Assembly: GCA_050178385.1 (NCBI GenBank)
Contig: JBFXGD010000083.1
Span: 1 to 14,407 of the forward strand
Source of the DNA: Calditrichaceae bacterium
GTDB taxonomy: Bacteria > Calditrichota > Calditrichia > Calditrichales > JBFXGD01
DNA: 14,407 bases
Reading direction: 5' to 3'
Below the pieces are notes generated by a model. It was not told the origin of the DNA, did not search any database, and saw only the letters and a list, made by a program, of their open reading frames with translations. Positions 10,925-14,407 of this stretch are shown here, piece by piece. How positions within the stretch are numbered: position 1 is the stretch's first letter; each line of letters starts with the position of its first letter. The position numbers were made by a program, and so were the translations under genes.

Positions 10925-13900
10925 TCAGCCGTTATCCTGATGGTTGTCGAGGACAGAGCGTATTTTGCGCACCAGGGCCAGGGGAGTGAAGGGCTTTTGT
11001 ATAAATTCAGTGCCGGGGTTAAGTTTACCCTGATGCACGATGGCGTCATCGGTATAACCGGACATGTATAATATCCGGGTATCCGGACGGATGGGATGCA
11101 AGTTTTCGACCAGTTCCCGACCATTCATTTTTGGCATGACCACATCGGTGAGCAACAGGTCAATATGCTGTTTGTACCGTTTTCCGACCAGGAGCGCCTG
11201 ATCTCCGTCGGGTGATTCGAGTACTCTGTAGCCTCTTTCCCTCAAGGTCTCACAGATTACCTGACGGACCCTCTCTTCATCCTCAACGACCAAAATAGTT
11301 TCGGAACCATTTAAGTTGTTTTCAGATATTTTGCCATTTTCTGATGTGTTACTGACCATCTCATCTGCCTTAAGGAAGTAAACACGGAATGTGGTACCTT
11401 CGCCGGCCTGGCTATCCACAAGAATATGACCTTCACTTTGTCGTATGATGCCGTAAACAGTCGCCAATCCTAGGCCGGTATGTTTTGCTTTCCCTTTTGT
11501 CGTAAAAAATGGTTCAAAAATATGCGGCTGAATATCCTTGTCAATGCCGTGTCCTGAGTCGCTGATCTGCATTGAAACATAGTTGCCGGTCTTAAATCCC
11601 GGATAATGGTAAAGATTATTTATGTCAACAGACAGTAGTTTTGTCTCGATTATTAATTTGCCACCGTCCGGCATGGCATCTCTGGCGTTCAGGACAAGGT
11701 TCATGATCACCTGTTCGATTTGTCCCGGATCGGATTTTATATTCAGCAACCCGTGACTCAGATTTGTGCTTACCTCGATATTTTCCGGAATTAAACGCGT
11801 AAGAATGTTCTTGGTTTTAATAATCATTTCGTTCAGGTCAAGTATCTTTGGCTGGAGAATTTGCTTTCTGCTGAGGGCAAGGAGCTGCTGCGTAAGTGAT
11901 TCCGCTCTGCGCGCCGCGTCGTCAATCTGTGTGATACTTTTTATTAGGGAGTCATTGTCTTTTACTTTTATCTGTAATAGTTCACAGTAGCCCCGGATAA
12001 TCGTTAATAAGTTGTTAAAATCATGCGCGACCCCGCCGGCGAGCTGCCCGATTGCCTCCATTTTTTGAGATTGCTGTAACTGGTTCTCGAGACGTTTTCG
12101 TTCAGTGATGTTTCTCGCGACACCGATCAGGGCGATTGGTTTTCCGCGTTCATTTCTGATAGCCGATGTGGAGAGAAAAACAGGTATTTTTGATCCGTCT
12201 TTTCTGATGTTGATGATTTCGCCCTGCCAGCCCCCCATCAATGTGTCAGGCAGAATTTTGCGGGCCTCAGCGAGCGAATCTTCGGGAGAGCGTATTATTG
12301 TGATCGGCTTTCCGATCAATTCTTCCTGCCGGTATCCGTAGGTTTTCAGAAACGCGTCATTGATAAATAATATATTATCTTCCTTATCGGTAATACTCAC
12401 ACATTCGCTGATACTTTTAATCGCGTGAGCGAGCATACTCATCTCGTTCTCAACTTTCTTCCGGTCTGTAATATCTCTCCCCATACCGATGATTCCGGTG
12501 ACGTCGCCTTTTTTATCCAGTATGGCGCTGTCAACCCAGCCAATCCATCTCCAGCCGTCTTTTGTCATCGCCCGTTGTTCAACATAAATCGTATGAGGCG
12601 GTTTATATAGTTGTTCCATTGCCTTAAGAGTGCTTTCCTGGTCATCCTCATGTACAAGGGGCATAAATTTCTTCCCAAGCAGCTCTTCCTCGGTTTTTCC
12701 AAAAACTTTGCAATATGACGGGCTCACAAATAAAAACTGACCATTTTTATCAACCTTAACAACGAGATCGGATTGGTTTTCAACAAGTAACCTGTATTTT
12801 TCCTCACTTTCCTGAAGCGCTTTTTCTGCCCGTATCCTTTCGGAAAGCTCCTTTCTAAGTTGTTCAGTTTTTACAGTCACTCGCTTTTTTAAAAGCCAAA
12901 ACCAGTAAAATACAATAAGAATGATTGCCAAAACCGGCGTGATGATATACACCGAATATTTCATAAGCTGTTGAAAAAATGTCTCCCGTTCATATACGCC
13001 AAACCACTTCTGGTAAATCTTGTCATATCTACCCGTTGCTTTCAGGATACTCAACCCTTCATTTAATTGAGCGAGAAGAACCAGATTGCCATCATGTACC
13101 GCAAAACAATAATTTACCGGATTGACCGGAGGCCCCACAGGTTCGATGTTTGTCAGCTTATAGCGGTGTATGAGGTATTGACCGGCAAGTGTGGCAAGAA
13201 GGGCGGCGTCATGTTGTCCTGATGCCAGCAGACGAAGCGCGTCTATCTGGTCATTGACAGTGATTAATTTCCCGGAAATATTATGCTTGACCGCAAACTC
13301 ATGCATCACATCGCCATTCTGGACGATCACTTCTTTGTCCTTTAAATCGGATAGCCGATTAACAGGAGAATCCTTCCGCACAAAAATTGTGTGGGATACA
13401 ATAATATGAGGCGTGGTGAAGTCAATTACTGAATCCCGGTCTTCGGTGAAATACATACCGGTGATCATATCAATCTTTCCGGCTTCAAGTTCTGATTTAA
13501 CATCATTCCAGGGACCGAGTGTCAATTTCAAATCAAAGCCCATCACATCTGCCACGGCTCTAATCAGATCGATATTAAATCCTTCAGGCTGATTTTTATC
13601 ATTCAGATATTCATACGGCGGGTAGTTATGATCCCCTTTAGCGGTTATGGTCATGTTTTTCTGCGCCGGGGCGGGTGAAAAGCTCAGTAGTGTAAAGGCC
13701 AGGATCAGAAAAATGCGTTTCCATGGTTCGGCAGCCAAATAACCGGCTTTAATAAGCGGAACAGAAAAGTTTTTCAAAAAAGGTTTTGCGAAATTGCATT
13801 TCAGGACATGTTTTTTGGTCATGATCAGGTCTTTATAATCAGTTAAAATAAAATCATCCTGATAAAGATTAAATCCTAAACATAAAGTTAATAAATTCAT
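10925..13900 (-). CDS. Hybrid sensor histidine kinase/response regulator (periplasmic SBP family 3 domain, TM, two PAS, HisKA, HATPase_c, C-terminal REC)
   Basis: 'GDHNYPPYEY....PEGFNIDL' (SBP_bac_3); TM 'YSVYIITPVLAIILIVFYWFWLL'; two PAS ending 'RDITDRK'/'RNITERK'; H-box 'GQLAGGVAHDFNNLL'; N-box 'NLVLNARDAM'; 'IFEPFFTTK'; REC 'LVVEDE..LLTDVVMPKMNG..MSGY..KPF'. True start may be the ATG at 13822. Confidence 0.93.
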   Translation of the reverse strand: MNLLTLCLGFNLYQDDFILTDYKDLIMTKKHVLKCNFAKPFLKNFSVPLIKAGYLAAEPWKRIFLILAFTLLSFSPAPAQKNMTITAKGDHNYPPYEYLNDKNQPEGFNIDLIRAVADVMGFDLKLTLGPWNDVKSELEAGKIDMITGMYFTEDRDSVIDFTTPHIIVSHTIFVRKDSPVNRLSDLKDKEVIVQNGDVMHEFAVKHNISGKLITVNDQIDALRLLASGQHDAALLATLAGQYLIHRYKLTNIEPVGPPVNPVNYCFAVHDGNLVLLAQLNEGLSILKATGRYDKIYQKWFGVYERETFFQQLMKYSVYIITPVLAIILIVFYWFWLLKKRVTVKTEQLRKELSERIRAEKALQESEEKYRLLVENQSDLVVKVDKNGQFLFVSPSYCKVFGKTEEELLGKKFMPLVHEDDQESTLKAMEQLYKPPHTIYVEQRAMTKDGWRWIGWVDSAILDKKGDVTGIIGMGRDITDRKKVENEMSMLAHAIKSISECVSITDKEDNILFINDAFLKTYGYRQEELIGKPITIIRSPEDSLAEARKILPDTLMGGWQGEIINIRKDGSKIPVFLSTSAIRNERGKPIALIGVARNITERKRLENQLQQSQKMEAIGQLAGGVAHDFNNLLTIIRGYCELLQIKVKDNDSLIKSITQIDDAARRAESLTQQLLALSRKQILQPKILDLNEMIIKTKNILTRLIPENIEVSTNLSHGLLNIKSDPGQIEQVIMNLVLNARDAMPDGGKLIIETKLLSVDINNLYHYPGFKTGNYVSMQISDSGHGIDKDIQPHIFEPFFTTKGKAKHTGLGLATVYGIIRQSEGHILVDSQAGEGTTFRVYFLKADEMVSNTSENGKISENNLNGSETILVVEDEERVRQVICETLRERGYRVLESPDGDQALLVGKRYKQHIDLLLTDVVMPKMNGRELVENLHPIRPDTRILYMSGYTDDAIVHQGKLNPGTEFIQKPFTPLALVRKIRSVLDNHQDNG

Positions 13901-14168
13901 ACGTATATTACCATTGTTTTATATGGGGCTCATGACAGCGATTCTTACCGCATCATACAGTACGATATAAGAAAAGAATTCCCGATACCGTCCAATCCGA
14001 ATATATTCAACATAAACAAATAAAAAAAGGATATGATTGTATGAATGAAAAATACAGCAACTGTCTGATTATTCGACATATTTAGAGGGAAAATAGCAGG
14101 ATTTTTAATGCTGCGAATCATGCCTAATTAACATAAAAACAACCGGATACGCAAAAGTACCAAAATTA

Positions 14169-14184
14169 TGGCACAGTTATTGTA
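14169..14184 (+). promoter_or_regulatory. Putative sigma54 (RpoN) -24/-12 promoter
   Basis: TGGCACAGTTATTGTA versus consensus TGGCAC-N5-TTGCW: exact -24 box and spacing, one mismatch (GT for GC) at -12. Confidence 0.6.
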
Positions 14185-14194
14185 TTATTATTAA

Positions 14195-14275
14195 GCAAAC
14201 AAGGATGTCACCCCCGAGAGAGTACGGAATAAATGGATTTTTGAAAGCCGGTCGAAAGACCGGCTTTTGTTTTTT
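14195..14275 (+). ncRNA. Candidate small RNA with CsrA/RsmA-binding GGA motifs
   Basis: Lies between a sigma54-like promoter and an otherwise orphan terminator; contains ACAAGGATGT (14199-14208), ACGGA (14224-14228), ATGGA (14233-14237); no sizeable ORF. 5' end inferred from promoter spacing. Confidence 0.55.
14244..14275 (+). terminator. Rho-independent terminator
   Basis: Perfect 10-bp stem AAAGCCGGTC-GAAA-GACCGGCTTT followed by TGTTTTTT. Confidence 0.9.
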
Positions 14276-14286
14276 AGGATGTAAAC

Positions 14287-14315
14287 TTGCATCGATAATT
14301 AAAGATCATTAAATT
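14287..14315 (+). promoter_or_regulatory. Putative sigma70-type promoter of tRNA-Lys(CTT)
   Basis: TTGCAT (14287-14292), 17 bp, TAAATT (14310-14315), ending 18 bp before the tRNA. Confidence 0.65.
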
Positions 14316-14333
14316 AGCGAACTTATTTTTAAC

Positions 14334-14406
14334 GCACCTGTAGCTCAAGTGGTAGAGCAGCTGACTCTTAATCAGTTGGTTCGGGGTTCGAGTCCCTGCA
14401 GGTGTA
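14334..14406 (+). tRNA. trnK: tRNA-Lys (anticodon CTT)
   Basis: Acceptor GCACCTG/CAGGTGT with discriminator A; D arm GCTC/GAGC; anticodon arm GCTGA-CT CTT AA-TCAGT; T arm CGGGG-TTCGAGT-CCCTG. Window ends 1 nt later, so CCA status is unknown. Confidence 0.96.
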
Positions 14407-14407
14407 C

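Follow-up and report, generated by a model that had tools for sequence, protein, structure and literature searches.

CsrA is known to be switched off in two ways, by sponge RNAs under GacA/UvrY in Gammaproteobacteria and by the protein FliW in flagellated lineages (PMC4682653, PMC7652899). The small RNA (sRNA) antagonists driven by BarA-UvrY were described as characteristic of Gammaproteobacteria and as anti-correlated with fliW, and 340 of 346 genomes with CsrA were reported to carry either an sRNA antagonist or fliW (PMC4682653). PMC7652899 likewise places the Csr sRNAs in Gammaproteobacteria and names FliW and CesT as protein antagonists, with FliW acting allosterically on CsrA. Here we analysed contig JBFXGD010000083.1 of a Calditrichaceae bacterium (GCA_050178385.1; genome G000, 3.89 Mb in 320 contigs, 94% complete, 41.8% G+C), of which the whole 14,407-nt stretch is called the window below. 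Its last ~240 bases, between a sensor-kinase gene and a tRNA-Lys gene, hold an orphan unit composed of a promoter, three ANGGA motifs and a terminator. CsrA decoy RNAs have been characterised mainly in Gammaproteobacteria, and the RNA predicted for this unit is a plausible, unannotated minimal candidate for such a decoy in Calditrichota.

The Csr/Rsm decoys CsrB, CsrC, RsmX, RsmY and RsmZ carry 5-22 GGA sites, and ACARGGAUGU and CANGGANG are the consensus sequences from CsrA SELEX (systematic evolution of ligands by exponential enrichment) and from the structural literature on RsmE. The window RNA resembles these decoys in its independent, terminator-ended gene, in its several A(N)GGA motifs, one of them fitting CANGGANG, and in the sequestration of CsrA proposed for it, in a genome where csrA is present and FliW was not found. 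It differs from them in having 2-3 sites, weak or absent hairpins and a home in the phylum Calditrichota, and, in place of a sigma-70 promoter with the palindromic GacA/UvrY box upstream (sought in the window by eye only), a sigma-54 promoter preceded by a candidate enhancer-type site. Some small E. coli sRNAs, McaS among them, bind CsrA via few GGA sites. McaS is comparable to the window RNA in length (~80-95 nt), in its few GGA sites and in a capacity of about one dimer, but it is Hfq-dependent, base-pairs and has no sigma-54 promoter, and no sequence similarity between the two was found. Several sRNAs are transcribed with sigma-54 under dedicated activators, namely Qrr1-5 (LuxO), GlmY (GlrR), CrcZ/CrcY (CbrB) and NrsZ (NtrC), and CrcZ acts as a protein decoy (Hfq/Crc), while to our knowledge none of them is a CsrA decoy. 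The window RNA shares with this group the position behind a -24/-12 promoter with an upstream activator site (a candidate one in the window), but not the phylum, and the Rfam models of Qrr, GlmY/GlmZ, CrcZ and NrsZ gave no match to it. GlmY, a sigma-54-dependent sRNA, is described as a decoy for RapZ (PMC4152352, PMC7073468), NrsZ as a further sigma-54-dependent sRNA (PMC4253122), and the effect of RpoN on rsmZ in Pseudomonas stutzeri, as given in PMC8249394, is only negative or indirect. Among the titles and abstract openings listed by our full-text literature search, which covered few subscription journals, there was no sigma-54-transcribed CsrA decoy and no sRNA described in Calditrichota.

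All sequence elements named by an initial annotation of this DNA, which had proposed a sigma-54-driven CsrA sponge of ~80 nt, were found in place, all on the plus strand. The -24/-12 promoter TGGCAC-AGTTA-TTGTA occupies 14169..14184 (TGGCAC 14169-14174, TTGTA 14180-14184) and is followed by a predicted small non-coding RNA of ~81 nt (14195..14275) whose 3' end lies in a T-run. The transcription start near 14195 would follow from sigma-54 geometry alone (+1 ~12 nt past the -12 T). Three ANGGA motifs lie in the 49-nt body, AAGGA at 14201-14205, ACGGA at 14224-14228 and ATGGA at 14233-14237. The first sits in ACAAGGATGT (14199..14208; RNA ACAAGGAUGU), fits CANGGANG and places its GGA at ~+9 to +11 of the predicted RNA; the second (ACGGA, 14224..14228) reads GAGGA in the alleles G001 and L006, and the third (AUGGA, 14233..14237) lies inside the invariant block GGAATAAATGGATTTT. 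Between the first and second motifs is a C-rich block, CCCCGAGAGA (14212..14221, within the C-rich stretch CACCCCCGAGAGAG). The Rho-independent terminator (14242..14275) was recovered by a terminator scan as a stem at 14242-14269 of 12 pairs (6 G-C) with a 4-nt GAAA loop, followed by TTTTTTAGGA. As the initial annotation had pointed out, this terminator has no gene to serve: no plus-strand open reading frame (ORF) of at least 60 aa ends there. The region 13000-14407 holds four terminator-like sites versus 1.0 +/- 1.2 in shuffles, and the whole predicted RNA folds at -22.9 kcal/mol (z = -2.4), nearly all of it from the terminator hairpin.

The unit is 84% identical in one other species of the same genus (G001) and occurs in two metagenome contigs, giving three distinct alleles in total (window, G001 and L006). 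Invariant across the three are the promoter, the terminator stem and the blocks CCCCGAGAGA and GGAATAAATGGATTTT, while the 49-nt body has 9 variable positions; none of the three GGAs is lost in any allele, which, with the constant promoter, speaks for the gene as originally proposed. Contigs from four DNA runs match the window exactly, save for an additional C behind position 14210 at low depth. No Rfam family matched at its gathering score, and in Rfam 15 at E <= 10 no Csr/Rsm model matched the window RNA. The best sub-threshold match, sroB (29.7 bits against a gathering score of 44), was carried mostly by the terminator and the adjoining A/U-rich stretch, and one to the rnk-leader largely by the terminator region, so that both were set aside. 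Close relatives of the unit were met within the genus only: a BLAST search of 41 genomes found one in G001 only, a 27-nt pattern search recovered two metagenome contigs and one genome contig, all of the same genus, and 20 tRNA-Lys(CTT) loci of other families carry no such unit upstream. We regard it as likely that this conserved orphan unit, transcribed with sigma-54 and yielding a non-coding RNA of ~81 nt, is real.

The promoter itself is well supported, and the genome contains what it would need. rpoN was identified with 196.9 bits, and Sigma54_activat gave 25 strong matches, corresponding to ~25 genes for enhancer-binding proteins; csrA is present as well, so that the three components on which the initial annotation depended were all recovered. 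TGGCAY-N5-TTGY occurs 30 times in the genome versus 10-48 times in five Markov-1 simulations, which indicates no overall enrichment. The placement of the sites was judged on a crude ORF map of G000 (89% coding). Of the 30 sites with the N5 spacing, 18 fall in non-coding DNA and 16 are followed within 400 nt by an ORF in the same direction, compared with 4 non-coding sites out of 104, and one with a co-directional ORF, for the spacings N3, N4, N6, N7 and N8 pooled. The motif is thus credible because its placement in non-coding DNA depends on the N5 spacing, not because of its count. Where the sigma-54 consensus is TGGCAC-N5-TTGCW, the window site has TTGTA at -12; this TTGT variant is found at 10 of the 18 non-coding N5 sites, for instance at dnaK and hsp20, and the genes behind the 16 sites include those for DnaK, ClpB (its N-terminal part, at a contig end), three Hsp20 proteins, a serpin, pyruvate:ferredoxin oxidoreductase and Cas6. 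Only two non-coding N5 sites have no protein gene behind them, the window site and one at a contig end. The promoter is identical in G001, L006 and L007, with variable flanks.

Upstream of the promoter, by ~85-115 nt, lies the block ACAGCAACTGTCTGATTATTCGACATATTTA (14054..14085, plus strand), which contains TGTC-N9-GACA and, of the whole upstream region, is best conserved when the window, G001 and L006 are compared. With up to 8 mismatches allowed, the block has only two other matches in the genome, both unrelated and with 7-8 mismatches. Its position suits an activator, for which a site ~80-150 nt from the promoter is expected, and it is a probable enhancer-binding-protein site, while a genome-wide search with the block, a comparison of regions upstream of chaperone genes and the upstream regions of the look-alike RNAs described below assigned no activator to it. 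An activator site common to the heat-shock promoters was considered and rejected, as GACATA, seen in 4 of 6 chaperone/sRNA upstream regions and 0 of 11 others, is not significant with ~2,000 k-mers tested. TGTC/GACA half-sites upstream of the look-alikes were uninformative.

The core promoter of the window RNA recurs in front of one hsp20 gene, on contig C160: from -27 to ~+8 the identity to that promoter (G000:C160:5206-5241) is 86% over 37 nt. Sigma-54 promoters precede dnaK (C110:1818), clpB (C165:544) and hsp20 genes (C160:5236, C140:8622 and C165:1479) in G000, and one precedes clpB in an f3 genome (L085, G022; f1 to f8 designate families, the window belonging to f1), which suggests a sigma-54-dependent heat-shock regulon in Calditrichota. 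A Cas6 gene stands behind a sigma-54 promoter in two families (G000:C8:33252; L023, G031:C308).

On these elements, the decoy would work as follows. RNA polymerase with sigma-54 would bind TGGCAC-N5-TTGTA, and an enhancer-binding protein, probably seated at the block ~100 nt upstream, would open the promoter on a signal. Transcription would run from near 14195 to the hairpin and T-run near 14275, yielding an RNA with a largely unpaired 5' half and three GGAs, the first (ACAAGGAUGU) ~9 nt from the 5' end. The spacing of the GGAs would let both RNA-binding faces of one CsrA dimer grip one RNA molecule. Once induced, the RNA would keep CsrA off mRNAs whose ribosome-binding regions contain GGA and thereby lift their repression, filling the antagonist role that FliW holds in the flagellated families of Calditrichota. 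The sequence elements, their conservation, their genomic setting and the existence of look-alikes were observed directly, whereas we infer the transcription start, the activator site, the binding of CsrA and the titration effect. Overall, we consider it plausible, with a probability of about 0.45, that the window RNA acts by holding CsrA. This figure is owed to the conserved GGAs, a CsrA background without FliW, and look-alike RNAs with proper CsrA-type loops, and it is held back by weak structure, few sites, an unexplained C-tract and a patchy distribution.

Regarding the GGAs, three motifs of the form A.GGA in a 49-nt body were rare both in 20,000 dinucleotide shuffles (0.29%) and in 614,454 intergenic windows of 49 nt (0.05%), while at least three plain GGAs in 49 nt are less unusual (9% of shuffles, 3% of windows). 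The second and third GGAs lie 23 and 32 nt beyond the first, distances within the span that one CsrA dimer bridges.

The genomic background is also compatible with a role in CsrA control. csrA of G000 scores 86.5 bits against a cut-off of 27 and is a 79-aa ORF outside any flagellar locus, between an ORF that resembles enoyl-CoA hydratase and one for a membrane protein, as judged by eye from the translations; FliW and Hfq were sought in G000 and neither was found. Among the 86 Calditrichota genomes, 77 carry csrA. fliW is present in 36 of the 37 genomes of f5, f7 and f8 and in none of the 49 of f1-f4 and f6, most of which keep csrA, and therefore CsrA in the window's order appears to be independent of FliW. 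Where coordinates were checked (G079, G074, G057 and G039), fliW lies ~60-200 nt from a second, lower-scoring csrA, as in G079:C161 with csrA at 1171-1329 and fliW at 1390-1746. Two csrA copies occur in 17 of the 37 genomes of the FliW-bearing families, and the FliW-less families mostly have a single csrA, with a score intermediate between the two copies. FliW thus offers the same relief of CsrA repression that is proposed for the window RNA, but it is a protein, found in f5, f7 and f8 and not found in the window's order or in f6.

The siblings anticipated by the initial annotation were sought across the phylum, with reversed or other control patterns run alongside. Orphan sigma-54 RNAs of the same layout, possible homologues of the window RNA, were recovered in f2 and f6. 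A sigma-54 promoter followed by CANGGANG within 8-30 nt gave 69 matches versus 9 for the reversed control. Most of the 67 matches examined are mRNA leaders with the motif at the ribosome-binding site, and in the FliW families the leader motif is often doubled, as in classical CsrA-repressed leaders; orphan units ended by a terminator were found in G002 (f2), G049 (f6), G066 (f8) and G053 (f7). A pattern free of GGA (promoter plus T-run 60-90 nt on) gave 59 matches versus 18 in the control, among them G001, G002 and four orphan units of f6 (G041, G042, G043 and G049). When a GGA 16-21 nt past TTGY was required together with the T-run, 12 matches were obtained versus 1 in the control, and 8 of the 12 are orphan RNAs, namely those of the window and G001, two in G002 and four in f6. 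A fifth f6 member, in G048, was reached through model R2 (TGGCAC-N5-TTGA, loop ACC-ACGGAU-GGU).

The RNAs of f6 and G002 agree with the window RNA in promoter type, a GGA at +8 to +11, an A/U-rich spacer and the terminator, and their length, counted from the inferred start, is similar at 74-83 nt, the second G002 RNA having 96 nt. The terminators of G041, G043 and G049 begin with AAAGCC/AAGCC. A second GGA follows 18-22 nt on (27 nt in G002), and in f6 it lies in a hexaloop fitting CANGGANG, as in ACC-AUGGAU-GGU, ACC-ACGGAU-GGU and CUAC-AGGGAA-GUAG, on stems that differ between members (ACC/GGU, AACC/GGUU and CUAC/GUAG). The window RNA, by contrast, has no such clear CANGGANG hairpin but carries an extra C-rich block and a third GGA. 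All six look-alike host genomes have csrA and none has fliW, and no such RNA was seen in the three f6 genomes that lack csrA. A covariance model built from the five f6 RNAs only, with the window sequence excluded (R3), hit the window locus with 39.0 bits over model positions 1-111, with the first GGA aligned (E 5e-05 when 24.8 kb were searched). No locus in the 3.9-Mb genome scored higher (E 0.0077, the runner-up having 30.2 bits), both E-values being rough; G001, L006 and G002 scored 43.8, 43.6 and 30.7 bits. With this shared layout, the window RNA and those of f6 and G002 possibly belong to the same family. BLAST with the G002 RNA found no relatives, and the genes flanking the look-alikes include no common regulator (an M48 peptidase and a Zn-dependent alcohol dehydrogenase in f6, Rho in G049, DUF4097 in G002).

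One single match and one group were rejected. The G004 match L029 lies in the 3' untranslated region of a gene and has no sigma-54 promoter. The f5 'hairpin' group (L139, L142, L143 and L145) is, at L156 (the G077 locus of L143), antisense within the 3' end of an RluD-like ORF, so that conservation of its promoter-like site and GGAAG repeats may be conservation of coding sequence.

The searches brought up further sigma-54 RNAs and leaders. The second orphan RNA of G002 (L180, G002:C1:3096541-3096661, minus strand, ~96 nt) has a 5' hairpin CAUUU-GGAA-AAGUG with the GGA in the loop and no second GGA. In f8, a FliW-bearing family, a 170-nt orphan sigma-54 unit (L125/L154, G066:C518:7551-7746, plus strand) lies between two unrelated co-directional genes; it ends in a terminator of 14 bp, carries four CAGGGA[AU]G motifs and AAGGAC, several of which fall within hairpin loops, and is far more RsmZ-like than the window RNA. 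Sigma-54 mRNA leaders with two CAGGGA motifs ~10-15 nt apart, the second at the ribosome-binding site, were seen in f5, f7 and f8 (L102, L118, L123, L128 and L137; further leaders of this group are L098, L101, L103-L105, L107, L124 and L127), an architecture that is that of a CsrA-repressed leader. FlgB-like rod genes, recognised by eye, also stand behind sigma-54 promoters in these three families. An orphan sigma-54 RNA family of f3 (..GAGUUAGGUCGUUGGUUGAGAGGG..) contains no GGA (G008:C3:5827, G030:C148:10233, G016:C25:7169, G034:C167:193 and G024:C169:2139; L164, L165). C-rich tracts of orphan sigma-54 RNAs read GCCUCCUUUACCCCCC in f3, AUAUCCUCCGCACCCCC in G009 and G011 (f2) and UUUACCUCC in G075 and G077 (f5).

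A number of observations weigh against a CsrA decoy, foremost the structure of the RNA. The initial annotation had drawn the first and third motifs as mini-hairpins presenting GGA, and these are not supported: folding of the 5' 49 nt is no more stable than that of shuffles (-4.5 kcal/mol, z = +0.68), the 3-bp hairpins are marginal, and the predicted unpaired probability of the GGAs is only 0.27-0.59. The ACA-AGGA-TGT stem is absent from the sister species G001, whose first site reads ACACGGAAGT (ACACGGATGT in L006), and the perfect ACARGGAUGU is not kept there either (ACACGGAAGU). ACARGGATGT occurs 16 times in the genome against ~15 expected (uniform base model, 2 x 7.8 million / 4^10), so that the perfect match in the window is notable only for its position. 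Survival of the GGAs in three alleles is not significant (9 GGA positions, 9 variable sites, p ~0.13-0.16), and of the longest invariant blocks of the body, CCCCGAGAGA and GGAATAAATGGATTTT, the former is left unexplained by CsrA binding. With two or three sites, an RNA would hold no more than a single dimer, well below the capacity of CsrB or RsmZ, and among the public runs found to hold the locus none is an RNA run.

The comparative evidence has its own weak points. The R3 score on the window comes largely from promoter and terminator, hairpin 2 of f6 is not matched at the corresponding position of the window RNA, and a model built from f1 only (R1) missed the f6 and G002 RNAs in the 86 genomes, returning only terminator-like or unrelated matches. 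The look-alikes were noticed partly through their GGAs. Orphan sigma-54 RNAs without GGA and with CCUCC or CCCCC tracts exist in f3, f2-g5 and f5, and the GGA-type RNAs are therefore a subset in the phylum and not the rule. Finally, f3 and f4 have csrA (22 of 27 genomes) without fliW, yet the GGA RNA was found in 0 of 27; an RNA antagonist is either not a general requirement in FliW-less families or a different one in f3/f4.

The C-rich tract leads to the first of the alternatives, a base-pairing sRNA in which this tract (CACCCCCGAGAGA) would pair with G-rich ribosome-binding regions, the GGAs being incidental or serving a second role. CCCCGAGAGA is the longest invariant block apart from GGAATAAATGGATTTT, the RNA lacks structure in its 5' half, a trait of many sRNAs with a seed, and exposed CCUCC/ACCCCC tracts recur in other orphan sigma-54 RNAs (G009/G011, f3 and G075/G077). 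Six of the ten best C-block duplexes fall at -9 to -18 from crude ORF starts, about the zone of the ribosome-binding site, but the same is expected of any C-rich string. Such tests of targets are weak, since each ORF was taken to start at its first ATG/GTG/TTG. Computed for 3,122 start regions, the duplex energies of the whole body were within the range of shuffles (best -36.9 versus -37.0, -36.7 and -33.8), as were those of the C-rich block alone (best -20.7 versus -18.7 to -22.4), and complementary 9-12-mers were not enriched (80 versus a mean of 96 at K = 9; 16 versus 25 at K = 10). The tract pairs with the ribosome-binding site of csrA (GGGGGAGA) over 5 bp only, the f6 and G002 look-alikes have no C-rich tract, and the lack of an Hfq match in G000 counts against pairing as well. 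We consider a base-pairing sRNA unlikely.

Less probable still, and in our view quite unlikely, is a sigma-54 regulatory RNA whose protein partner is not CsrA, or one of dual function as decoy and seed. Decoys of this kind are known among sigma-54 sRNAs, as CrcZ acts on Hfq/Crc and GlmY on RapZ, and two conserved blocks of different character in one 49-nt body would suit a double role. No partner candidate was identified, though; Hfq is again the protein that the search of G000 did not return, and the elements shared with f6 and G002 are the GGAs.

The resemblance to the C160 hsp20 promoter, which extends into the first transcribed bases, raises a further alternative, namely a transcript with no function in trans, the by-product of a duplicated hsp20-type promoter/leader that ends at a terminator insulating tRNA-Lys. 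The restriction of close sequence relatives to the genus is in line with this, and so is the promoter-like element of the adjacent tRNA. Against it, with 16% of positions differing between the species, the RNA body is conserved to the same degree as the promoter; the upstream block, too, has been kept, and beyond ~+8 the body bears no real resemblance to the hsp20 leader. Two other families have RNAs laid out in the same way, and the f6 model picks out the window locus; an origin as by-product is distinctly improbable. A tiny protein-coding mRNA is the least credible of all, because, although a 35-aa ORF (14205-14312, the sole small ORF) and a mini-ORF AUG-GAU-UUU-UGA (MDF-stop) exist and GGA-AUAA-AUG could mimic a ribosome-binding site, the former crosses the terminator and its ATG is AAG in G001, the stop of the latter is lost there to give a 13-codon frame, and the short frames of f6 vary in length and lose their start in G043.

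Downstream, tRNA-Lys(CTT) (14334..14407, plus strand) is preceded by TTGCAT-N17-TAAATT (14287..14315, plus strand), a probable tRNA promoter conserved in G001, L006 and L007. Pairs of the form TTGCAT-N17-19-TAAATTTG precede tRNA-Lys(CTT) in many Calditrichales, other families included, and are probably the housekeeping promoter form of this order. The tRNA would be transcribed from this promoter of its own, and the terminator of the sRNA is therefore not regarded as an attenuator of the tRNA. At three other loci (L046, L055 and L059 in G023, G029 and G012) the first 15 tRNA bases, GCACCTGTAGCTCAA, are repeated ~100-150 nt upstream of tRNA-Lys(CTT) and followed by unrelated structured sequence, either a duplicated 5' fragment or an interrupted tRNA gene. 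On the other side, the divergent neighbour is a hybrid sensor kinase gene (10925..13900, minus strand; SBP_bac_3, two to three PAS, HisKA, HATPase_c and REC domains). A divergent ORF stands beside the RNA in G001 as well, and the adjacency with the sensor kinase was seen within the genus only.

A GGA-rich tandem array elsewhere in the genome was examined as a rival sponge. The array (G000:C93:5600-6300; L078 600-1300, minus strand) is the densest non-coding GGA cluster of the genome and consists of ~1 kb of non-coding tandem units of 20-21 nt, with ..GGAGGGAAGG..AAA.. in ~5-6 copies and then ACGGGAAGGGGTAAAA.. seven times. The array proved to be part of a dispersed repeat family, matched 12 times in G001, and was dropped.

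Beyond the window, a broader proposal may be made for a CsrA decoy of this type, in which CsrA, retained by lineages of Calditrichota that have lost its flagellar partner FliW, is controlled there by one-dimer sigma-54 decoy RNAs and the RNAs of the window, G002 and f6 form one old, fast-evolving family, an RNA antagonist system outside Gammaproteobacteria with a different transcriptional logic. We hold this generalisation to be doubtful. Under it, signalling through enhancer-binding proteins, in the stress/heat-shock branch of hsp20, dnaK and clpB, would possibly be wired to the CsrA regulon. Even if the RNA does not act on CsrA, the unit would still represent a new sigma-54-dependent sRNA, in a phylum for which our literature search found none described. 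If it does, short sigma-54 RNAs would be the missing antagonists in a whole order that has CsrA and in which FliW was not detected, and sponge RNAs against CsrA would have arisen, or survived, well beyond the Proteobacteria. A CsrA sponge could then be as small as a trap for a single dimer, and CsrA would be coupled to a large family of sigma-54 activators.

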